Origin: Verrucomicrobiota bacterium
Lineage (GTDB): Bacteria > Verrucomicrobiota > Verrucomicrobiia > Limisphaerales > AAA164-E04
Direction of reading: 5' to 3'
Assembly: GCA_047947115.1 (NCBI GenBank)
Contig: CP170459.1
Coordinates: forward strand, 4,064,001-4,128,000
DNA length: 64,000 nt
The translations under genes and the position numbers were made by a program. The notes beneath the pieces were generated by a model, which did not search any database, had not been told where the DNA came from, and saw only the letters and a program-made list of their open reading frames with translations. Shown piece after piece: positions 9,559 through 63,526 of this stretch (the first letter of the stretch is position 1; each line of letters begins with the position of its first letter).

Positions 9559-10359
9559 TTAGAATTTTTTGATTGCATTGGACAAGGATCCTACAAATTC
9601 AGAAACGTGAGAAACAAGCGTATCCGATTTCCCCTCCTCGGCGATCTTATTGACCACAGCACTTCCGACAATAATGGCATCACCATATTCCGCCACTTGG
9701 CGCGCCTGTTCCGGATTGGAAATGCCAAAACCTATGGCGATCGGGAGTTGGGTTCGCTGACGGATAGTGCCGGTCATTTCTGAAATGGTTGACGAAATAC
9801 TGGATTGCATTCCCGTCACGCCTTCTCTTGATACATAATAGATGAATCCTTTTCCATGCTCGACGATGGATTGAATCCTTGCGTCGGGTGTCGTCGGCGC
9901 AATCAAAAACACTGGGCAAAGCCCGGCGTTCTGCATCAACTGACTGTAGTCCTCCGATTCTTCCGGCGGTAGATCCAGAATCAAAATTCCATCGGCCCCG
10001 GCATCGGCACTTTCCTGAATAAATCGCTTCAATCCATATCGGTGAAGCAAATTGTAATAAACGAAAAACACGATGGGGATTTCAGATTCTTTCCGAATGG
10101 ACTTCACCGTTTCCAACACGCCACCAGGTGTCGTGCCGGAATCCAATCCCCGCTGAGCGGCCAATTGGTTTACAAGGCCGTCAGCAAGCGGATCACTGAA
10201 CGGTATTCCAAGTTCCAGCACATCCGCGCCAGCATTGTCGAAGGCAAGAGCCAGTTGGCGCGTCGACTCCAGATCCGGATCTCCCGCGCCGATATAAACC
10301 ACCAGGCCCTTTTTACCTTGGCTCTTCAAATCGGCAAAACGTTGCTCAATACGATTCAT
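9559..10359 (-). CDS. trpA: Tryptophan synthase alpha chain
   Basis: AGDP, ELGIPFSDPLADG, DLPPEE, LIAPTT, YYVSREGVTG, GFGIS. Confidence 0.97.
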   Translation of the reverse strand: MNRIEQRFADLKSQGKKGLVVYIGAGDPDLESTRQLALAFDNAGADVLELGIPFSDPLADGLVNQLAAQRGLDSGTTPGGVLETVKSIRKESEIPIVFFVYYNLLHRYGLKRFIQESADAGADGILILDLPPEESEDYSQLMQNAGLCPVFLIAPTTPDARIQSIVEHGKGFIYYVSREGVTGMQSSISSTISEMTGTIRQRTQLPIAIGFGISNPEQARQVAEYGDAIIVGSAVVNKIAEEGKSDTLVSHVSEFVGSLSNAIKKF

Positions 10360-10480
10360 TTTTCAAATAGTTGGGTTTCCTGCGTCAGGATGCAAGAGTT
10401 AATCAAACCAACTGGAATGGTAATCGGTTTTTCTTCTTAGAAGCTTTGAATAATCGTCCCTATCATGAGTGCGGATATCA

Positions 10481-10513
10481 AGAAAGCGGTTCCCTTAACA
10501 GGAACCGCTTTCT
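10481..10513 (-). terminator. Intrinsic terminator hairpin after the Gfo/Idh/MocA gene
   Basis: Perfect 13-bp stem AGAAAGCGGTTCC-N7-GGAACCGCTTTCT. Confidence 0.7.
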
Positions 10514-10538
10514 CGTGAGTAATTCATTTGCCTTGGGC

Positions 10539-11702
10539 CTAGATCTTGACCCATTGCCGTGTCTCGGCGGATTCTTCGACCGCTTCCATGACACGCTGGT
10601 TAAGCATACCGTCTTCAAACGTAGGCTGGACAGCGCTGCCATCCACCACCGCATTGACGAAGTCGGCCAAGGTGTGAACGAAGGTGTGTTCATAGCCCAG
10701 AATGTGGCCGGGAGGCCACCATTGCCCCACGAAAGGATGATCTCCACCGGGCTGGGTAACCAGGATGTCGCTGAATCCCTGGCGATCGCTGGCCACCGTG
10801 TTGTCAAACCATTTGAGGCGGTTCATGTCTTCGAAATCGAAGTAAAGGGATCCTTTCGAACCATTGATTTCAATGACAATGTTGTTTTTGCGACCTAGTG
10901 CGAAACGAGTGGCTTCCAAATTGGCGACGGCTCCGTTTTGAAATTTCCCGATAAACAACGCGGCGTCATCCACAGTGACTTCGCCCATGGTTTTGCCACC
11001 GGCACCGCCCAGACCGTCTCCTTTACCGGAGGAGTCTTCGATCGGGCGCTGTTTGATGAAGGTGTTCATCATGCCGCAAACTTCCTCGAATTCACCCACC
11101 AGATAACGTCCAAGATCGATGATGTGTGCATTGATGTCTCCGTGAGCGCCACTTCCGCTGATACCTTTCTGCAGCCTCCAGACCAAGGGGAACTCAGGAT
11201 CCACAATCCAGTCTTGGGCGTAACGTGCGCGGTAGTGATAAATTTTTCCAATGGCACCCTCTTCAATCATTTTCTTGGCATGGGCGATGGCGGGAATGCG
11301 GCGATAATTGTGACAAACCATGTGCACAATACCCGCTTCCTTGGCGGCATCCACCATTTCCTGACACTGCGCCACAGTCATGGCCAGCGGTTTCTCACAC
11401 AAAACGTGTTTACCGGCCTTGGCAGCTGCTATGGAAATTTCAGCATGCGAATCATTGGGTGTATTGATGTCAACAATATCGATCTCTGGATTGTTAATCA
11501 CTTCTTCCCAACTGGTTGAAATATTTTCCCAACCAAGTTCCTTGGCCGATGCTTCCAGGGCTTCCTTATTGCGACCACAAATGGTGTGCATTTTAATGTC
11601 GGCTTTCAACGGAAAGAAATGGGGAGCCTGCCTCCAACCGTTGGAGTGAGCTTTCCCCATGAACCGGTAGCCGATCATACCGACGTTAAGTGTTTTGGAC
11701 AT
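10539..11702 (-). CDS. Gfo/Idh/MocA family oxidoreductase
   Basis: VGMIGYRFMGKAH, TPNDSH, GKHVLCEKPLA, GD..AHIID. Confidence 0.92.
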   Translation of the reverse strand: MSKTLNVGMIGYRFMGKAHSNGWRQAPHFFPLKADIKMHTICGRNKEALEASAKELGWENISTSWEEVINNPEIDIVDINTPNDSHAEISIAAAKAGKHVLCEKPLAMTVAQCQEMVDAAKEAGIVHMVCHNYRRIPAIAHAKKMIEEGAIGKIYHYRARYAQDWIVDPEFPLVWRLQKGISGSGAHGDINAHIIDLGRYLVGEFEEVCGMMNTFIKQRPIEDSSGKGDGLGGAGGKTMGEVTVDDAALFIGKFQNGAVANLEATRFALGRKNNIVIEINGSKGSLYFDFEDMNRLKWFDNTVASDRQGFSDILVTQPGGDHPFVGQWWPPGHILGYEHTFVHTLADFVNAVVDGSAVQPTFEDGMLNQRVMEAVEESAETRQWVKI

Positions 11703-23328: not shown

Positions 23329-24477
23329 GTGTAGTCCGCCTTACAGATAGCATATTAAAAGAAATGTGTTAAAGTCGTTACATGCGAGTTGCTCCGCCCA
23401 TTGAATTGACAGCTAAAGAACGTAAAAAATTGGAAACCATTCGCCGTGGGCGAAGCAGTTCAGTGCGGGCACGTGAACGAGCCGCGATCATTCTGTTGGC
23501 CGCCGATGGATTGGAGAACAAAGAAATCGCCGATCAGCTCGGGCAGGATAAAATGAAAGTGGGACGTTGGAGAAAGCGATACTCCCAAGGCGGTCTTGAA
23601 GCTATTCTCAAAGACAAATCACGGCCTGGTCGAATCAAGCCTCTTTCAAAAGCAAAAGTAGCACTCATTATTAAGCTAACACTCAACGAAAAGCCTGAAA
23701 GCGCTACCCAATGGAGCCGAAGCTTGATGGCTCAAAAGGTAGGAGTAAGTCCCTCCAGTGTAGGTCGAATCTGGGCAGCCAACGGACTCAAACCGCATCG
23801 GATCAAATCATTCAAACTTTCAAACGACAAACAATTTCAAGAAAAGCTCGAAGACATTGTCGGCCTCTATCTAAGTCCTCCTGAGCATGCGTTGGTTTTT
23901 TCGTGCGACGAGAAGAGTCAAATCCAAGCGCTTGACAGGACTCAACCTGGTTTACCAATGAAGAAGGGACGACTGCGGACAATGACGCATGATTACAAAC
24001 GCAACGGAACGACATCACTTTTCGCGGCTATGAACACAGCCGACGGGAATATTATCGGAACCTGCATGAACAAGCATCGGCATCAGGAATGGATTCGGTT
24101 TCTTAATTTGATTGAAAAATCAACACCCAAAGGAAAAGAGATCCACTTGATCTGTGACAATTACGCAACCCATAAGCACGCCAAAGTCAAAGCGTGGCAG
24201 AAGCGACATCGTCGATTCCATTTCCACTTTACGCCCACCAGTGCTTCATGGTTGAACATGGTGGAACGTTTTTTCCGAGACCTGACGGTCAACACAATCA
24301 GAGGTGGGGTGTTCCATAGTGTTGGAGATTTAACCCGAGCTATCGAAGAGCATATTACCCATCACAACCAGAATCCAAAACCATTTGTCTGGACGGCTAA
24401 CGCGACGGACATTCTTGAGAAAGTTAAGCGTGGCCGAGAGAAACTTGTTAATATGCAGTCTGCTTGACGGACTACAC
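23329..24477 (+). mobile_element. IS630-family insertion sequence (1149 bp)
   Basis: Imperfect 29-bp terminal inverted repeats (GTGTAGTCCG...GCATATTA) and TA duplication at 23327-28 and 24478-79 in a CTAG target. Confidence 0.93.
23382..24467 (+). CDS. IS630-family transposase
   Basis: HTH region (V.RW..RY..GG, RPGR), DEKSQIQAL, HDYKRNGT, DNYATHK, HFTPTSASWLN.VERFF. Confidence 0.96.
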   Translation: MRVAPPIELTAKERKKLETIRRGRSSSVRARERAAIILLAADGLENKEIADQLGQDKMKVGRWRKRYSQGGLEAILKDKSRPGRIKPLSKAKVALIIKLTLNEKPESATQWSRSLMAQKVGVSPSSVGRIWAANGLKPHRIKSFKLSNDKQFQEKLEDIVGLYLSPPEHALVFSCDEKSQIQALDRTQPGLPMKKGRLRTMTHDYKRNGTTSLFAAMNTADGNIIGTCMNKHRHQEWIRFLNLIEKSTPKGKEIHLICDNYATHKHAKVKAWQKRHRRFHFHFTPTSASWLNMVERFFRDLTVNTIRGGVFHSVGDLTRAIEEHITHHNQNPKPFVWTANATDILEKVKRGREKLVNMQSA

Positions 24478-28253: not shown

Positions 28254-29683
28254 ATGAACGCATTTAATGCAGCCCTTCAACGCCGCAGTTTCCTGAATCG
28301 CTCCACCGTCGGCATTGGCTCTCTCGCCCTGAGCCAGTACCTCAAGCCGTGGCAAACCGCTGCACAAACCACCGAAATTGGAGCAAGACCATGGCCGGGC
28401 GTCATTGACCCGATGCACTTGCAACAGAAGGCTAAAAGGGTGATTTACTTGTGCATGGCCGGCGGGCCAAGTCATCTGGAGACGCTCGATTACAAACCAA
28501 AGCTTGCTGAGATGGACGGCAAGCCCATGCCGGAATCGATCACCAAAGGCCAGCCCATCGCACAGCTGCAAGGCCAAAAACTCAATTGTCTAGCCCCCCA
28601 GCATCCGTTTGAAACCTATGGGCAATCCAAACAGCAGATTTGTTCTCTTTTTCCAAAGATCGGTGGCGTCGCAGATGATTTGTGTATCATCCGCTCCTTT
28701 CATACGGAACAAATCAACCATGATCCGGCCCACACTTTCATCAATACCGGTTCATCAGTATCAGGACGTCCCAGCATGGGCTCCTGGTTGCTGTATGGTT
28801 TGGGTAGTGAGACCGAAAACCTGCCCGGATTTGTGGTGCTGACATCGGTAGGCAAAGGTGGGCAGGCGCAACCGATTTCGTCCAGACAGTGGCACAGCGG
28901 GTTCCTGCCCAGTAATTTTCAAGGGGTGCAGTTTAATGCCAACGGAGATCCTGTTCACTATGTGTCATCTCCTCCGGGTGTTCATAACAACGAACAACGC
29001 CGGCTTGTTGACGCCATCAACGCCCTGAATCGCGAAAAAGACATCCTTGTGTCGGACCCGGAAATCGCCACGCGTATCAGCCAATATGAAATGGCGTTCC
29101 GGATGCAGACCAGCGTGCCTGAATTGATGGAATTAAAAGATGAACCAAAGCACATTCTGGACATGTACGGAGCCGAGGCCGGGGATGGTTCTTTTGCTTC
29201 CAACTGCCTTCTTGCCCGGCGACTGGCCGAGCGCGGGGTTCGTTTTATACACCTCTATCATCGTGGCTGGGATCATCATGGTAACGTAAAAGGGAATATG
29301 GTCACGACGGCCAATGAAGTCGACCAGCCCACAGCTGCTTTGATCACCGATCTTAAACAAAGGGGCATGCTTGATGATACCTTGGTCATTTGGGGGGAGA
29401 ATTTGGACGCACCCCCATGGCGCAAGGAAGCGGGCGCGACCATCATATACGGGGATTTTCCCTCTTTATGGCTGGCGGAGGTATTCAAGGCGGGATGTCT
29501 TACGGCAACACCGATGATCTGGGTTACAAGGCCGTGGATCGGCCTTTTCATGTTCATGATCTCCATGCCACAATGCTTCACCTTTTCGGTATCGACCACT
29601 TGCGACTCACCTACCGTTTCCAGGGGCGCGATTATCGTCTGACAGACATTGCCGGGAATGTGGTGCAGGATATTCTGGCATAA
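28254..29683 (+). CDS. DUF1501 (sulfatase-like, Tat-exported) protein, frameshifted
   Basis: RRSFL Tat motif, AKRVIYL.M.GGPSH, GWDHH. The WGGEFGRTP motif is broken by a -1 frameshift in the G6 run at 29392-29397 and continues in ORF 29390-29683. Confidence 0.88.
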
Positions 29684-30978: not shown

Positions 30979-30994
30979 TGGCACCGATTTTGCT
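30979..30994 (+). promoter_or_regulatory. Sigma54 (-24/-12) promoter
   Basis: TGGCAC-CGATT-TTGCT, exact GG-N10-GC spacing, intergenic and oriented toward the VTC gene. Confidence 0.78.
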
Positions 30995-31007
30995 TAGTCA
31001 GTCATAG

Positions 31008-31114
31008 CATTCAAATGAGAAACCTATCCGGAAATATCCGGTGAACGTTGCAGGAGATGGTGTAGCCACAAACGTTCCCGTGTGATACACGGCATGGTTT
31101 TTCTGATTGAAATG
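31008..31114 (+). ncRNA. Candidate structured leader RNA/sRNA (four-way junction)
   Basis: Closing stem GAGAAACC/GGTTTTTC encloses three adjacent hairpins: CCGGA/TCCGG, GAACGTT/AACGTTC and CCGTGT/ACACGG. Confidence 0.45.
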
Positions 31115-31199
31115 TGTTACAGTTGAGTGACAATGATCAACGAAGCGGGTTCAACAATCAAACCGCTCGGGATGAGGCAATTTATATACTGGCGACAAT

Positions 31200-32090
31200 A
31201 TGGGGCAAGGCAAGCTACAGAAACAGCGGCACGAGCTTAAGTATGTGATACCGGAGCATTTGGCTTTGGCGGTGCGTGATTTTGTGCGCTGTTATCTTGA
31301 TTTGGACCTCAATGGTGCCGATCAGCCGGATCTGTCCTATCCTGTTCACAGCCTGTATATGGATTCACCTGGGATGGCTCTTTACAACAGCACCATCAAT
31401 GGAGATAAGAACCGATTTAAGTTACGCATTCGTTTCTACAACGAACGGGAAGACACCCCTGTTTTTTTGGAAATCAAACGTCGGATGAACAACATCATCA
31501 GCAAAAAACGCGTTGGAGTCCCACGATCCTGCATGCCTCAGATATTGGCCGGACAAATTCCGGATGCATCGTACCTTTACCACCAAGAAAATCCTGCTGA
31601 CCAGACAGTTTTCAACGATCCGACTCTTGCCAGCCAGGAGCAGGCTCTCATTGATTTTGTAGATATGGTCAACCGACTGGAAGCACAACCGGTATCGCAT
31701 GTCGCATACCGACGGGAAGCCTGGGTGCAACCCGACAGTAACCAAGTCAGAGTCACTCTTGACAGACAGGTGAGGTGCGAGCCTGATCCGGGTGCCCGCA
31801 TGATGACCGCGATGCAAAACCCTACTTTGGTCTTCGGCGACTGGGTAATCCTTGAATTGAAGTTCACCGATCGTTTTCCAAACTGGTTCAGAGAGCTGGT
31901 GGAGATTTTCAATCTGACACAATGCGGTGCTGCCAAGTATGTTGACGGAATTACCCTGATGGGCAAGGATCAGACTTCCGAACTGATCGCCTCACATATG
32001 GAAACCCATCACGCCATCGGTTCGCCCCACTCAGCAGGGACCCGGGATCATCTGAAGCGTCGAGAACAGGCCATAGCTGCCACTTTCTGA
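31200..32090 (+). CDS. VTC-domain (polyphosphate polymerase, TTM/CYTH fold) protein
   Basis: RHELKY, SLY.D, KLRIRFY, LEIK, YRREA, RVTLD, ILELKF, KY motifs. Confidence 0.88.
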   Translation: MGQGKLQKQRHELKYVIPEHLALAVRDFVRCYLDLDLNGADQPDLSYPVHSLYMDSPGMALYNSTINGDKNRFKLRIRFYNEREDTPVFLEIKRRMNNIISKKRVGVPRSCMPQILAGQIPDASYLYHQENPADQTVFNDPTLASQEQALIDFVDMVNRLEAQPVSHVAYRREAWVQPDSNQVRVTLDRQVRCEPDPGARMMTAMQNPTLVFGDWVILELKFTDRFPNWFRELVEIFNLTQCGAAKYVDGITLMGKDQTSELIASHMETHHAIGSPHSAGTRDHLKRREQAIAATF

Positions 32091-32095
32091 TCAAC

Positions 32096-32779
32096 ATGGA
32101 TTGGTTTCTAAACGCGGATTTCTCCACGGCACCCACGCCTCTGCACCTTACCCTGCTTGGGTTGCTGCTTTCGTTCCTTTGTGGTCACGTGATCGCCTGG
32201 GTTTACATGATGACTCATACCGGATTGTCCTATTCCCGTACCTTTGTGCAATCATTGATGATCATGCCGGTCATTGTGGCTTTGGTGATGATGGTGCTTT
32301 CCAACAATATCGTGTATGCGTTTGGATTGATGGCGGTATTTGCCATTGTCCGCTTCCGTAACATCCTGCGGGACACCCTCGACACAACTTATATCCTCGG
32401 TGTGATCGTCATCGGAATGGCCTGCGGCACCTATAAATTTCTAACGGCATCAATCGGCTGTCTGCTGATCGCCCTGATATTGCTCTATGTCTGGCTCACA
32501 GGATTCGGCAGTCGTCAGCGCTACGATATGATTTTGAACATGCATTGGGCGCGTGATCTGAATCACCTGATGGAACTGGAACTGATTCTTCGCAGACATG
32601 CGTTACGATCTGTTTGTGCCAGCCAGCGATCCCACCAAACACTTTCAGGAACGGATCTATCTTATCGATTGTTGTTACGAAACCCCTCGAAGATGCAGGA
32701 TTTGCTGGAGGAAATTAAATCATTGGATGGAGTCTCACGCGTCACCGGACTGCGTGCAGAGGAGGAATCAGAAATATGA
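32096..32779 (+). CDS. DUF4956 membrane protein
   Basis: About 5 TM helices, A.GL..V.AIVRFRN.LRD and GMACG motifs, soluble C-terminal domain; the usual VTC neighbour. Confidence 0.85.
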   Translation: MDWFLNADFSTAPTPLHLTLLGLLLSFLCGHVIAWVYMMTHTGLSYSRTFVQSLMIMPVIVALVMMVLSNNIVYAFGLMAVFAIVRFRNILRDTLDTTYILGVIVIGMACGTYKFLTASIGCLLIALILLYVWLTGFGSRQRYDMILNMHWARDLNHLMELELILRRHALRSVCASQRSHQTLSGTDLSYRLLLRNPSKMQDLLEEIKSLDGVSRVTGLRAEEESEI

Positions 32780-33912
32780 GCCAGGTTCCTCCCAAATCGA
32801 TCCCTATTCCAGCATGGAAACGATGGATGGAATTTCGCCACCGAGTGTTGCCTTCCATCATGTTTGTAGTGGTGTTGTTTCTGGTTGGATTCCTTTGGAA
32901 ATCACATCTGACCAGCCCTTCTCTGATCGGACAGGTGCAGACCATGCGATTGGATATCCGCACTCCGTCATCAGGCACGCTCACCAATCTTGCAGTGGAG
33001 CTTTATCAGAAAGTCAGGAAAGGCGACATCATTGCCAAACTCGATCCGGGTGATCCATTGACGTCGCTCGGATCTCAAGCCCAAGTCTTGTTGGCCAAAA
33101 AGGAATTACTGCAATTAATGAACCTGACTACTGCCGCCAACGCGTTTGATATCCAGCGAAATGTCATGGACAAAGAACGGTTGAGAACCGAGTTGTTGCA
33201 ACAGAAAGTCAATCTTGCCTCTGCTGAAATTTCCCTCAAGAACCTGGAAAATGAATGGCACCGTTCCAAAGGGTTGTTTGATGAAAAACTCCTGTCTGAA
33301 AGCGCATATGATCGTGCGGAAAAGGCTTTCCTCGCAGCCAAAGCCGAAGTTGAGGCGCGCAACGAATTGATTGCAGATCTGGGAAGAACGATTCAGAGCA
33401 TTGAATCCCTGATTGAAGGAAGTCGCGAGATTGAGGAAGCTAAATTGGAGATTGACCGAACCACACTGCAGAGATCGATCGCCAAACTGGAGCAGGAATG
33501 GCTCATCAGGGCCCCGGTGGATGGTGTCATTACGGCGATTCAAAAACGAAGCGGTGAAATGGTGGGATCCTCCGATTCCATTGCTACGCTGACCCAGTCC
33601 GGCACGAGATCCGTCATAGCTTTCCTTCCTCAGGGTTCTGAAATCCCCTTGTCAATCGGGCAATCATTGGAAATCAAGACCCGATCCCAGTTTGTGAAGC
33701 AGTGTAAGGGAACGGTCACCAAAGTGGGAGAAAGCTATGAGCCCATGCCGGACCAACTTTCTCAACTGCAGCTATTCAAAATTGGAGGCATTGGAATTCC
33801 CATTTTGATAGAATTGCCGGATGAGTTTCAGTGTCTCCCGGGTGAGCTGGTCAACATCACCTTCAACACGCCCGTCAAACATTCGAAAACTGAATCCTTG
33901 GCAGAACGCTGA
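32776..33912 (+). CDS. HlyD-family membrane fusion (periplasmic adaptor) protein
   Basis: N-terminal TM, lipoyl half-motifs IRTP.SG.L...V...QKVRKGD and IRAPVDGVI....GE.V around a long coiled coil. ATGA overlap with the DUF4956 gene. Confidence 0.85.
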   Translation: MSQVPPKSIPIPAWKRWMEFRHRVLPSIMFVVVLFLVGFLWKSHLTSPSLIGQVQTMRLDIRTPSSGTLTNLAVELYQKVRKGDIIAKLDPGDPLTSLGSQAQVLLAKKELLQLMNLTTAANAFDIQRNVMDKERLRTELLQQKVNLASAEISLKNLENEWHRSKGLFDEKLLSESAYDRAEKAFLAAKAEVEARNELIADLGRTIQSIESLIEGSREIEEAKLEIDRTTLQRSIAKLEQEWLIRAPVDGVITAIQKRSGEMVGSSDSIATLTQSGTRSVIAFLPQGSEIPLSIGQSLEIKTRSQFVKQCKGTVTKVGESYEPMPDQLSQLQLFKIGGIGIPILIELPDEFQCLPGELVNITFNTPVKHSKTESLAER

Positions 33913-33933: not shown

Positions 33934-34554
33934 ATGGCACGCATCAAAGCGCTACCAACGGAAGTTTCTTCCCGGTATTACCCGTTTGATTATTTTGCGC
34001 CCATAGATTGGGAGCAGGTATTTGGTATCACGTCCCCAATAGAAATAGAGCTTGGGGCGGGTGATGGATCGTTCCTTATACAATACGCGGAACAAAACCC
34101 CCAGCTCAAGCTGCTGGGAATCGAACGCCTTCTGGGGCGTATCCGTAAAATCGATCGAAAAGCGCATAAATCCGGGATCACCAACCTGCGGCTCCTCAGA
34201 ATTGAAGCAGGTTATTTTTTGAAATACCTCCTCAAGGAACAATCCGTGCGTGCCGTCCACGTTTATTTTCCTGATCCATGGCCCAAAAAGCGTCATCAGA
34301 AAAACAGGCTCATCAACTCAACCTTTGTTGACCATTGTAAACGAATTCTGGAACCTTCCGGCCACGTTTACCTCAGAACGGATCACATCGAGTATTTTGA
34401 ACAGATGAAAACGGTCTTCGCGGACTCACCGGATTTTGAATTTCAGGATACTCCAATCAGTTTGCAAACCATCAAGACGGATTTTGAAACCCGTTTCAAC
34501 CAACAGGGCATCCAGACCCAGCACGCCACATACCGCTTGATTGCAGGAACATGA
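33934..34554 (+). CDS. trmB: tRNA (guanine-N7)-methyltransferase
   Basis: EIELGAGDG, GIE, YFPDPWPKKRH.K.RL, RTD..EY, T.FE. Confidence 0.95.
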   Translation: MARIKALPTEVSSRYYPFDYFAPIDWEQVFGITSPIEIELGAGDGSFLIQYAEQNPQLKLLGIERLLGRIRKIDRKAHKSGITNLRLLRIEAGYFLKYLLKEQSVRAVHVYFPDPWPKKRHQKNRLINSTFVDHCKRILEPSGHVYLRTDHIEYFEQMKTVFADSPDFEFQDTPISLQTIKTDFETRFNQQGIQTQHATYRLIAGT

Positions 34555-36032: not shown

Positions 36033-36163
36033 CAGTGTGCTGAGCATCAAACCGATAAACGGCCCTTCCCTTGGGCACATGAAGGCTCTGAGGAATTAAT
36101 GCCAACGAATCGTTGCATCGGACGGCACGATTTTGCATAATGCCTTCGAAGACAATTTATCCC

Positions 36164-37687
36164 ATGGAGTACGAATTGGTTACCCAGGAAGACGTATTTC
36201 ACTCAATGGAATCCGCCAAGTCGATTGGCCGCAAAGCCTATGACGAACTTGTCACGCATCTGCGAGCGGATCTCCTCGAAGCCCAGCGTGCCCTGGAAGC
36301 AACCTCTCAATCGGTGATCATCACCATTGGAGGTGTGGACGGCGCGGGTAAAGGTGAAGTCATTCAAATCCTCAATGAATGGTTGGATCCACGTGGTCTG
36401 GACACTCATAGCTTCTGGGATATGGCGGCGAATGCGACGGATCGCCCCTACCAATGGAGGTATTGGCAGTCCCTGCCCAAGCGTGGACGCATTGCTATCT
36501 GGTTTGGAGGCATGTACACGGACCCGATCGACAAATACGTTCACGAACGACGTCACCCCGAATGGGCCAAGGAAATCAGTCGTGAAATCCGTTTTTTTGA
36601 AAACATGTTGCGTGAGGATGGGACGATTCAGATTAAAATCTGGTTGCACCTGACAAAAGGCGCCCAGCACAGGCGCTTGAAGGATCTGTATGATAACCCG
36701 CAGGAACATTGGCGTGCCATGCAGGATGATTGGAAGCACCACAACCTTTACGAACATTTTTCAGAAGCTGCCGAGCAATTGATTTCACGCACAAATCGGA
36801 AAGAATCCCCCTGGCATGTCATCGATGCATCCATCAAGGAATGGAGGAATGTCACTGTAGGACGTCTGTTGCACGAAACCGTGCTCAAGGCAATCAAGTT
36901 GCAAACATCGAAGCCAAGCAAAAAGAAAATCGCACAGAAGTTTTCCAAGGTCGAACGAGATTACCTCTCCGAAGTGGACTTGGACCAGAAATTGGATACC
37001 GAAGTGTATGAACAGGCTTTAATCACCTGGCAGGGACGATTGCATCGACTTTTCTGGGAAGCCTATGATCGCAACATCTCCACCGTCCTAACCTTTGAGG
37101 GATGGGACGCAGCTGGCAAAGGTAGCGCCATCAAGCGTGTCACGGCCGCCATCGACGCCCGCCTGTATCGCATCGTTTGCGTCGGAGCCCCGACACAGGA
37201 AGAGAACAGATATCACTATCTGTGGCGCTTTTGGGGCCCTCTTCCAAGAGCGGGACGTATCACAATTTTCGACAGATCATGGTACGGGCGAGTACTGGTT
37301 GAGCGGGTTGAAAAATTCGCAGAAGAAAAGGAATGGACACGGGCTTATGAGGAAATCAACGAATTTGAAGAGCTTCTGACAAGTCATGGCACCGTTGTTT
37401 GCAAATTCTGGCTGCATATCAGCAAGGACAAGCAAATGGATCGATTTAAAAAGCGGTTAAAAGTCCCTTACAAACGGCACAAAATAACCGAGGAAGACTG
37501 GCGCAACCGGGAGAAGTGGTCTCAGTATGAAACGGCGGTAAATGACATGATCGGTCTGACCAATACTCCCAACGCACCCTGGACCATTGTGGCCGGTAAC
37601 AGTAAGAAGTTTGCCCGCATACAGATTCTCCAATCCATCTGTCGACAATTGGAACAAGCGCTGGGAAATTCGGGCGACCAAAGCTGA
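36164..37687 (+). CDS. pap: Polyphosphate:AMP phosphotransferase (two-domain PPK2)
   Basis: Two PPK2 domains: GVDGAGKG and EGWDAAGKG..IKR, FDRSWYGRVLVERVE. TTGCAT-N17-CATAAT at 36113-36141 favours the ATG 36164 start. Confidence 0.92.
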   Translation: MEYELVTQEDVFHSMESAKSIGRKAYDELVTHLRADLLEAQRALEATSQSVIITIGGVDGAGKGEVIQILNEWLDPRGLDTHSFWDMAANATDRPYQWRYWQSLPKRGRIAIWFGGMYTDPIDKYVHERRHPEWAKEISREIRFFENMLREDGTIQIKIWLHLTKGAQHRRLKDLYDNPQEHWRAMQDDWKHHNLYEHFSEAAEQLISRTNRKESPWHVIDASIKEWRNVTVGRLLHETVLKAIKLQTSKPSKKKIAQKFSKVERDYLSEVDLDQKLDTEVYEQALITWQGRLHRLFWEAYDRNISTVLTFEGWDAAGKGSAIKRVTAAIDARLYRIVCVGAPTQEENRYHYLWRFWGPLPRAGRITIFDRSWYGRVLVERVEKFAEEKEWTRAYEEINEFEELLTSHGTVVCKFWLHISKDKQMDRFKKRLKVPYKRHKITEEDWRNREKWSQYETAVNDMIGLTNTPNAPWTIVAGNSKKFARIQILQSICRQLEQALGNSGDQS

Positions 37688-62029: not shown

Positions 62030-63526
62030 CTAGACCTTCCCCTGCTTTCTCCAACGATACAACGTGGTCGGATGAATGCCCAGCTGCGCCGCCACCCATC
62101 CCAGGTTGTTGTCGGATTGAACCAGCAAATCACGGGCGAGCGCCATTTTCTGTTTGGGTGAAAGTGCAGGCGTTGAAGGCCATCCGGTCATTTGCTGATT
62201 AGGATAAGCACCTGGCGCCGCCATATGGCTGCCCCCTCCGGTTTGGGGGGCAAATCCACCAGGAGTTCCGTGAACAGGTTGAAATCCCCTTTGTCCGGCA
62301 TCACCGCCGGGCACATAACTTTCCTGCAAATGCTGTGCCGGCATGCCACTATTCATCGGAGCCCCTGCATGATGCATGCCTCCTTGGTTGGAAGAAGAAA
62401 GTGGCCGTTCCCACCAGGCAGCCCGCAGGACGGGCCCGTCGTGCAGGACAACCATGCGATCAATCTGACTCTTCAGTTCACGCACATTACCGGGCCAATG
62501 ATAAGCCTGAAAAGCCTGGACCAACTCAGGTTCAATTCCATCAAAGTGCTTTCCGAACCGTTCGCTCGCCATGTCCAAAAAGAGCTTCACGAATTGCGGG
62601 ACATCATCGTTGTGCATGCGCAAGGGTGGAATTCTCAGGGTGATTTCCGACAGTCGGAAGTAAAGGTCTGTACGGAAATTATGACGTTCGGTTTCATTGT
62701 CGAGATTGCGGTTTGTTGCCGAAATCACCCGGACATCGACCGGATAATCCTCGCCCCCCCCGATACGCCGTGCCTTTCTGGTTTCCAGAAAACGCAACAG
62801 TTTGGGTTGCAGCCCCATGTCCAACTCACCAATTTCATCCAGGAACAACGTTCCTCCATTGGCCTGCTCAACCAGCCCCTTTCTAGTCTTGAGTGCTCCG
62901 GTGTAGGAACCTTTCTCGGCTCCAAACAACTCTGCTTCGATCAAGTCTTTGGGAATGGCGGCACAATTGACGGCAACAAAAGTCTCCCGACCACTGCTTG
63001 CATGCAATGCCTGTGCCACCCGCTCTTTCCCGACCCCGGATTCGCCCAGAATGAGCACCGTCGCATCAGTTGGCCCAAGACGTTCGATGCCTTGCCTCAG
63101 GTTTTGCATGGCGTATGATTCGCCCACCAGGATGTCTTTGGATTCCAGCGTCTTCCCCCCATACAACTGAATCCACAAATGCTGAGAATCCGAAGCCTTT
63201 TGCAAGGCTTCCTTCCACCGAGCCACATCGTCTTCAAGGTCCAGGACATCAAAGGCTCCGTCGCGCATGGCGCTGACGGTTTCCTTGGTCCCCATCATGG
63301 AGCCAAATGCAATATAAAAACGGCTTGTCTGGCTCAGCCTCACCCGAATATGCGCCCACCTGTCGTCTGAAGTGGATTGGTAAGGAATCATATACACACT
63401 GTCATGGGTATTGTGGCTCAGTTCTTTGATTTGATCGGGCTCGAAGAACTGACATCGAAATCCCATGGATGTTACCCAGGCTTCCGCCTTCCGGGATTCC
63501 GGGTGATTGAGGAGTTGAATGATCAT
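62030..63526 (-). CDS. Sigma54-dependent enhancer-binding protein with degenerate receiver domain
   Basis: LGESGVGKE, NCAAIP, ELFG.EKGSYTGA, GGTLFLDEIGE, WPGNVREL, C-terminal Fis-type HTH. Confidence 0.93.
   Translation of the reverse strand: MIIQLLNHPESRKAEAWVTSMGFRCQFFEPDQIKELSHNTHDSVYMIPYQSTSDDRWAHIRVRLSQTSRFYIAFGSMMGTKETVSAMRDGAFDVLDLEDDVARWKEALQKASDSQHLWIQLYGGKTLESKDILVGESYAMQNLRQGIERLGPTDATVLILGESGVGKERVAQALHASSGRETFVAVNCAAIPKDLIEAELFGAEKGSYTGALKTRKGLVEQANGGTLFLDEIGELDMGLQPKLLRFLETRKARRIGGGEDYPVDVRVISATNRNLDNETERHNFRTDLYFRLSEITLRIPPLRMHNDDVPQFVKLFLDMASERFGKHFDGIEPELVQAFQAYHWPGNVRELKSQIDRMVVLHDGPVLRAAWWERPLSSSNQGGMHHAGAPMNSGMPAQHLQESYVPGGDAGQRGFQPVHGTPGGFAPQTGGGSHMAAPGAYPNQQMTGWPSTPALSPKQKMALARDLLVQSDNNLGWVAAQLGIHPTTLYRWRKQGKV

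Follow-up and report, generated by a model that had tools for sequence, protein, structure and literature searches.

A candidate unit for polyphosphate synthesis and export, built from a VTC-domain enzyme, a DUF4956 membrane protein and an EmrA-type adaptor, in a Verrucomicrobiota bacterium

The channel of the yeast VTC complex carries basic rings at its mouth, and K458 is the sole difference of its Vtc4 from the inactive Vtc2/3 (excerpts of 10.1101/2023.01.27.525886). In the EmrAB-TolC system, the adaptor EmrA follows a plan without a membrane-proximal domain (excerpts of PMC4158417), while a RxxxLxxxxxxS motif at the tip of adaptor hairpins binds TolC (excerpts of PMC3391258). The nearest described bacterial case is a putative cotH-PPP-DUF4956 accessory gene group situated beside pel loci (excerpts of PMC7112168). 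The parts available of PMC13318637 and PMC12526157 treat VTC as eukaryotic and bacterial polyphosphate (polyP) synthesis as the intracellular work of PPK1 and PPK2, those of PMC10657179 yielded no discussion of bacterial VTC proteins, and no description of a bacterial exporter combining VTC and an adaptor was found in the full-text literature outside subscription papers. Here, we analyse three consecutive genes, encoding a VTC-domain enzyme, a DUF4956 membrane protein and a HlyD-like periplasmic adaptor, in a 64-kb window (the whole stretch of DNA under study, 64,000 nucleotides) of the genome of a Verrucomicrobiota bacterium (GCA_047947115.1), which consists of one contig of 6.08 Mb.

The reading that we favour, with a probability of roughly one half, is that this triplet mediates synthesis-coupled polyP export via DUF4956, the adaptor and a shared TolC, with likely repression when phosphate is limiting and with secreted CotH kinases as possible recipients. 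According to this model, the VTC protein would polymerise ATP into polyP at the cytoplasmic face, and the chain would pass through a DUF4956 oligomer of the inner membrane. The EmrA-type adaptor would relay polyP over the periplasm to a duct of the TolC family whose gene lies elsewhere, in this host likely a pump-less housekeeping TolC, and the driving force would be polymerisation itself, as in yeast VTC. Under phosphate limitation, phosphorylated PhoB would shut the operon via an inverted Pho-box array, and secreted CotH kinases would be likely, albeit less certain, users of the exported polyP. A narrower version, in which the polymerase stands in for the pump of a new class of tripartite exporter that brings polyP via the housekeeping TolC to the cell surface as the phosphoryl donor for an expanded set of secreted CotH kinases, with PhoB closing the drain at low phosphate, is more tentative. 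A preliminary description, made from the sequence of the window alone, had already proposed polyP synthesis and export. That proposal is sustained in part, by the HlyD linkage, the VTC active site, the TolC-docking build of the adaptor and the TolC genes linked to the cassette in other lineages, whereas its PPK2 neighbour does not support it, and the inverted Pho-box array, the genome-level tie to CotH and a candidate TolC encoded in trans had escaped it.

A search with the VTC protein matched 21 of 22 genomes of the family, 214 of 301 of the order and 31 of 301 of the phylum. From these, 80 surrounding regions were fetched (20 from the family; 40 from the order, picked among the best matches by the length of the contig and the range of families; and 20 of 30 phylum matches), and loci were called with profiles built from the fetched loci, partial or frameshifted adaptors being scored as present. 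DUF4956 comes next in 74 of 82 VTC genes, and the complete triplet is found in 66 of the 82 VTC loci sampled in the phylum. The linkage of the HlyD-like gene is thus conserved in 66 of the 74 VTC-DUF4956 pairs. Median gaps within the triplet amount to 4.5 nt (VTC to DUF4956) and 1.5 nt (DUF4956 to adaptor). The genes flanking it on both sides differ among loci, the triplet persisting across classes, and among the sampled loci no ABC, RND or MFS pump and no gene for glycan synthesis or a cargo is conserved beside it. In a second locus of the host (G000:C1:5927434-5929600; L003:9474-11572), a divergent DUF4956-VTC pair has a lamin-tail-domain gene behind it and no adaptor; its VTC protein has Glu and Gly aligned at the K281 and K294 positions, in an uncertain alignment.

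It is likely, as the preliminary description had assumed, that the VTC protein is a polyphosphate polymerase using ATP, judging from its active-site residues. Compared with the PDB, the VTC family profile matches yeast Vtc4 (3g3q) over the full length with an E value of 7e-20, Vtc4 chains ranking top. The alignment equates K14, R76, R78, K93, Y170, R172, E219 and K246 with Vtc4 K200, R264, R266, K281, Y359, R361, E426 and K458, which, together with S457, are described as needed for polyP synthesis or as triphosphate and Mn ligands (excerpts of 10.1101/2023.01.27.525886). All 67 sequences compared share seven of these residues (K14, R76, R78, K93, R172, E219 and K246), and 66 of them have Y170; 8 of the 9 Vtc4 active-site residues are therefore retained, the equivalents of K458 and E426 included. 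The VTC domain (134 bits for PF09359, cut-off 23) occupies residues 9-254 of a protein with no other Pfam family, no SPX domain and no predicted transmembrane segment. Stand-alone VTC paralogues with the catalytic set intact and no adjacent DUF4956 have also been seen (L079, L080, L081, L084, L088:17878, L089 and L091), two of them behind response regulators and two behind TerC genes. Regarding other polyP enzymes, a separate PPK1 is encoded in the genome for cytosolic polyP. The two-domain PPK2 does lie downstream at the distance given in the preliminary description, its start 2.2 kb past the adaptor (TIGR03708, 612 bits against a cut-off of 548), but it was rejected as a partner of the module: PPK2 occurs near the triplet in 2 of 82 loci only, the window and its closest relative, and is therefore an incidental neighbour outside the unit, from which trmB and namZ separate it.

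We infer that DUF4956 is the inner-membrane channel for polyP. The membrane protein (PF16316, 45.9 bits, cut-off 30.6) was modelled with a pLDDT of 79.8 and a pTM of 0.59 as five hydrophobic helices plus a C-terminal ACT-like domain, residues 139-227 resembling ACT/ferredoxin-like folds in a fold search (Z 8-10). Its loop charges favour an N-out, C-in topology; R86-F87-R88, invariant in 67 of 67 sequences, would then face the cytoplasm from one end of helix 3, near the presumed place of VTC. By analogy only, this RFR motif is reminiscent of the basic rings described for the mouth of the yeast VTC channel. Sequence and fold searches returned no solved relative of the membrane part, which is not proof of a new fold, and a complex prediction of DUF4956 with the adaptor scored 0.01, a value rated as no answer and as evidence neither way. 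Among the 120 proteins listed of 299 longer-protein matches, no fusion of DUF4956 to VTC or HlyD is annotated.

The adaptor scores 43.4 bits for HlyD_3, and its profile finds EmrA (4tko) as the best match in the PDB (E 1e-23). In its model (pLDDT 88.8; MacA/EmrA as top Foldseek matches), an N-terminal membrane helix, a lipoyl domain, a long hairpin and a beta-barrel are predicted, and there is no membrane-proximal domain. The hairpin tip carries R163, L167 and S174, which make up the RxxxLxxxxxxS motif; of 56 sequences, 51 keep its R, 51 its L and 46 its S. EmrA likewise lacks the membrane-proximal domain, and its partner is without a large periplasmic domain. The idea that the adaptor bridges to an outer-membrane channel is backed by its predicted TolC-docking build, on the EmrA plan with RLS, and by the TolC genes linked to it in other lineages. 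In a scan of 59 flanking proteins, an OEP gene (the TolC family) was located directly 3' of the adaptor in 6 of the 20 loci fetched from outside the order. In genome G202, which belongs to the same order, an OEP gene overlaps an adaptor displaced from VTC-DUF4956, with no pump adjacent, and in G126 and G200, also of this order, an OEP gene lies one gene away from the adaptor. A quick tree places the OEPs of these three genomes as sister to the clade of the host's pump-less OEP (SH-aLRT 99), and none of the host's 10 other OEPs groups with them; the OEPs linked to the cassette fall in two separate clades. The pump-less OEP (G000:C1:4491032-4492648), the only one of the host without an adjacent adaptor or pump, is a plausible outer-membrane partner of the adaptor. 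The OEP of an RND pump at 2.675 Mb, the top match to a distant-OEP profile made from six linked OEPs and one unconfirmed 403-aa protein, was rejected because the tree places no host OEP in the distant-OEP clade. A DUF3616 gene between adaptor and OEP was noted at L192:8712-9710 (Pfam) and L193:~9645-10680 (by eye).

CotH is an ATP-using kinase. The host genome contains 30 CotH matches, with an N-terminal hydrophobic stretch in 20 of the 27 frames examined, and the 64-kb window contains no match to CotH or OEP. Of the 301 genomes of the order, 214 are VTC-positive and 210 of these have CotH; among the 87 VTC-negative ones, CotH was found in 25. At least six candidates occur in 170 of the 214 and in 3 of the 87. 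Candidates do not stand for copy numbers here, and a genome counts as VTC-negative when the window query found no VTC in it. CotH adjoins five of the loci scanned. At the level of genomes the association with CotH is strong, with no CotH gene next to the triplet in the window. A Pho-like box (one mismatch, sense) is situated 54 nt upstream of a CotH gene at G000:C1:4410736 (L157).

Two upstream elements may govern the triplet. The exact -24/-12 promoter motif singled out in the preliminary description is present, with a predicted start near 31005 and a leader of ~195 nt, and rpoN is encoded in the genome. Exact matches number 6 genome-wide versus 5.9-6.7 expected, a chance level that led to the rejection of the exact match as stand-alone evidence. 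Allowing at most one mismatch with GG/GC fixed, the sigma54 motif is conserved upstream of VTC in sense in 15 of 80 regions, in antisense in 0 of 80, and in 2 of 291 control upstream regions; sigma54 control, confined to this minority of loci, would therefore not be general to the module. A second exact consensus match in the window (63003-63018, minus strand) falls inside an open reading frame and is probably due to chance.

In an alignment of upstream regions, the block at 31095-31135 is better conserved than the sigma54 motif and is the top upstream block in genera g1 and g3. Here, three half-sites with 11-bp spacing on the minus strand (TTGTCAC, CTGTAAC and TTCAATC) form an array 66-95 nt before the VTC start codon, downstream of the sigma54 motif and over plus-strand sigma70-like elements (31107-31134). 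A matrix made from the upstream block of the family itself picked out no other strong genomic site, and an independent Pho matrix was therefore used, trained on pstS upstream regions alone (13 sites from 28 regions, seeded with a consensus). With this matrix the VTC site scores 16.8 and ranks 18th in the genome, the head of a TonB-Pit-pstSCAB-phoU operon ranking 3rd, pstS 11th, the second DUF4956 gene 24th (sense) and a phoB-like intergenic region 30th; many other top matches are unrelated. At a score of at least 12 and between -130 and -25 from the VTC start, an antisense Pho-like box is detected in 20 of 80 loci from 9 families and a sense box in 3 of 80, compared with a shuffle mean of 0.28 and counts of 1 and 0 in 291 control genes. 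Eight of the top 21 loci face a divergent gene, but with a single exception they keep a constant distance to VTC. A Pho-box consensus has been published, and the box of the PhoB-repressed orfA-pit lies just before the start codon (excerpts of PMC3131613). The inverted array is likely a PhoB repression site that would be active under phosphate limitation, as far as its sequence and position indicate, and another OmpR-type regulator is possible at this place. A shut-off under phosphate limitation fits the unit, because the unit spends phosphate. Other boxes were observed elsewhere in the genome. The second DUF4956-VTC locus has a Pho-like box in sense 39 nt upstream, and at G000:C1:5337082-5352134 (L150) a strong Pho box heads a run of DUF3450, ExbB, ExbD, TonB, TPR, TonB-dependent receptor, Pit, pst and phoU genes, which may form a TonB-dependent system for taking up a phosphorus compound.

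Several observations weigh against synthesis-coupled export. Regarding the enzyme, the position of Vtc4 S457 is Ala in 52 of 67 VTC sequences and, since triphosphate-tunnel enzymes catalyse diverse reactions (PMC4641920), polymerase activity is likely rather than certain. The eukaryotic VTC membrane domain was not matched by DUF4956 in sequence and fold searches, the latter covering its membrane part little, as their lists were filled by the ACT domain, with no VTC chain among the matches. DUF4956 members do show weak matches to MgtC (PF02308), 25 of 67 at E <=1 with a best value of 4.7e-6 (the window protein not being one of the 25), although hhalign of DUF4956 to one MgtC gave a probability of 0.1%, which is not significant. 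Eight of the 74 VTC-DUF4956 pairs have no following adaptor and 8 of the 82 VTC genes no DUF4956 next to them; moreover, the adaptor would be an add-on, since VTC-DUF4956-CotH occurs in single-membrane bacteria (excerpts of PMC7112168). All 52 genomes examined, some of them VTC-negative, have the pump-less OEP, which is therefore a shared housekeeping TolC, not a dedicated one, and the CotH co-occurrence counts overstate independence because the genomes are related. Finally, no more than a quarter of the loci score for the Pho-like box, five full-length OmpR-type regulators are possible owners of it, and the best PhoB match in the genome is under the family cut-off. A PhoB candidate lies at G000:C1:636816-637484.

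The alternative that survives best, unlikely as it is, holds that the unit serves another cargo (ATP for CotH, a phosphorylated glycan or a protein), VTC acting as a triphosphatase/energiser or loader and DUF4956 as a MgtC-like, ACT-regulated anchor. The MgtC family is regulatory, and the MgtC-like architecture of DUF4956 speaks for such an anchor, as the diversity of tunnel enzymes and the use of ATP by CotH do for a different chemistry. The cassette also adjoins Pel polysaccharide loci in Gram-positives (excerpts of PMC7112168), and many longer proteins are DUF4956-DUF1080 fusions, the 120 listed of the 299 carrying DUF4956 alone or with DUF1080. A different cargo is harder to reconcile with the invariance of the Vtc4-specific K458 and the full tunnel set, and with the lack of any conserved glycan synthesis or cargo gene beside the triplet in the sampled loci. 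Many fusions of ~450 aa with DUF1080 (PF06439) were found among proteins P0146-P0265, some of them named from Anaerolineae.

Release of polyP by VTC and DUF4956 across the inner membrane only, with the adaptor as an accessory that retains or leaks polyP and cooperates with TolC in some lineages only, seems to us quite improbable. The core pair occurs without an adaptor in monoderms and in the host's second locus, no OEP gene is found within the first 61 family and order loci, and hairpin-less adaptors of ~240 aa, too short for TolC, exist in four genomes. On the other hand, most adaptors keep the long hairpin and the RLS motif, and OEP linkage recurs with two separate OEP clades. The hairpin-less relatives (L086, L097, L185 and L186, from G099, G028, G160 and G058, respectively) keep the N-terminus and beta-barrel, and those of G099 and G028 are divergent from VTC-DUF4956.

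It is very doubtful that the unit imports environmental polyP, with VTC reversed or degrading, as a PhoB-induced phosphate scavenger. A Pho-like box is present, host transcripts occur in estuarine and marine samples, a phosphate-selective porin replaces the adaptor after two adaptor-less DUF4956-VTC pairs, and routes of external polyP uptake are called unknown in excerpts of PMC13318637. Against import, co-occurring CotH kinases would consume a phosphoryl donor, not supply it. TolC/adaptor ducts are established export devices. Moreover, the box is inverted relative to pstS boxes and near the start codon, as in PhoB-repressed orfA-pit (excerpts of PMC3131613); under phosphate starvation an exporter should fall and a scavenger rise. 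Least probable of all is that the adaptor has no functional tie to the other two proteins and works with a pump from another locus, its linkage reflecting inherited synteny: trmB, beside the triplet in 12 of 82 loci, shows that unrelated genes ride along, and the G202 adaptor stands apart from VTC-DUF4956, but the triplet outlasts the change of both its flanks, of 70 VTC-negative genomes searched (out of 87, at most 25 candidates scored per genome) a single one yielded a full-length operon-type adaptor, and the displaced G202 adaptor overlaps its TolC gene without an adjacent pump.

If synthesis-coupled export is true, the unit would constitute a dedicated bacterial route for polyP secretion and a new type of inner-membrane partner for TolC. 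In addition, it would explain the phosphate source for kinases outside the cell, and the dissolved polyP of estuaries and the sea would gain a named biological origin.

The features of the locus are collected in Table 1. The 5-nt gap between the VTC and DUF4956 genes (32091-32095) and the ATGA overlap of DUF4956 and adaptor (32776-32779), as well as the coordinates of the triplet in the preliminary description, proved correct on re-reading of the sequence. A gap of 273 nt separates the VTC gene from an upstream iron-alcohol-dehydrogenase gene. On the 3' side, trmB (21 nt past the adaptor stop) and a NamZ muramidase gene, both unmentioned in the preliminary description, precede PPK2; trmB is probably on the same transcript as the triplet here, yet outside the module. 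The statement of the preliminary description that no CotH, ABC or RND gene is adjacent was confirmed by a scan of the neighbouring proteins, none of the 13 scanned between 20.9 and 41.0 kb of the window being an ABC or RND pump. Twenty metatranscriptome runs, belonging to 17 studies and taken from estuaries, seawater and further aquatic samples, contain part of the window. Named relatives of its proteins are Verrucomicrobia, one of them from subdivision 3, and an aquatic verrucomicrobium is the probable source. Of four runs examined, X5 has one contig that spans both gene junctions of the triplet, X8 has two contigs that span one junction each, and X1 and X2 have long contigs with even coverage throughout, possibly DNA. 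Assembled contigs show neither a single transcript nor its start or level, and co-transcription is therefore not claimed.

Table 1. Features of the triplet locus and its 3' neighbours (window coordinates)
Feature	Position	Strand	Basis
sigma54-type -24/-12 promoter motif, TGGCACCGATTTTGCT	30979-30994	+	exact consensus match
inverted Pho-box-like array, three half-sites	31105-31133	-	pstS-trained matrix and upstream alignment
VTC-domain (triphosphate tunnel) enzyme, soluble, predicted polyphosphate polymerase, 296 aa	31200-32090	+	PF09359
DUF4956 membrane protein, candidate translocation pore, 227 aa	32096-32779	+	PF16316
EmrA-type periplasmic adaptor (HlyD-like), 378 aa	32776-33912	+	HlyD_3, EmrA profile match
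trmB tRNA methyltransferase	33934-34554	+	TIGR00091 above cut-off
two-domain PPK2 (polyP:AMP phosphotransferase)	36113-37687	+	TIGR03708

Further upstream, a DUF1501 gene (28254-29683) is seemingly frameshifted near 29390-29420, a conserved-looking C-terminus continuing in another frame. Its relatives have ~476 aa in a single frame, and the window copy would be a sequencing error or a pseudogene. A transposase-like open reading frame at 23382-24467, which we take to be IS630-like, is missing at the same position in the gene map of the closest relative.

Compared with known systems, the more distant likenesses concern single parts of the locus. DUF4956 shares with MgtC/SapB the order of a membrane domain and an ACT-like domain (M. 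tuberculosis MgtC 2lqj, Z 8.0, rank 48), but no DUF4956 member was seen above the MgtC cut-off. The array resembles the Pho box of Sinorhizobium meliloti orfA-pit in its 7-nt repeats, 4-nt spacer and location just upstream of the start codon (excerpts of PMC3131613), and differs in its inverted orientation with respect to the gene and in following a sigma54 motif. The cotH-PPP-DUF4956-DUF4832 group beside Gram-positive pel loci has the same pair of VTC ("poly-phosphate polymerase") and DUF4956 and is CotH-associated, but its hosts are monoderm and without adaptor or TolC, whereas here CotH is dispersed and expanded, not adjacent (excerpts of PMC7112168). Yeast VTC (Vtc4/Vtc3/Vtc1; PDB 3g3q, 8i6v and 7ytj) shares homologous catalytic tunnel residues and the pairing of an enzyme with a small membrane protein that has basic residues on its cytoplasmic side. 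Unlike yeast VTC, this unit has no SPX domain, its enzyme and membrane part are separate genes, S457 is mostly Ala, DUF4956 is modelled with five helices plus an ACT-like domain, where the Vtc1-type channel subunit has three helices, and no homology between it and the VTC membrane domain was detected, and the adaptor and TolC would extend the path over a second membrane. With EmrAB-TolC (PDB 4tko and 8zal) the likeness lies in an anchored adaptor without membrane-proximal domain, with a long hairpin and an RLS tip, and presumably in a shared TolC encoded elsewhere; the difference is that no MFS, ABC or RND transporter belongs to the unit, the inner-membrane slot being filled by a 227-aa DUF4956 protein and a soluble enzyme. 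Lacking both an SPX domain and an ABC, RND or MFS pump, the unit is classed as neither of the two; from its sequences and predicted structures, it would work like yeast VTC and be built like EmrAB-TolC.

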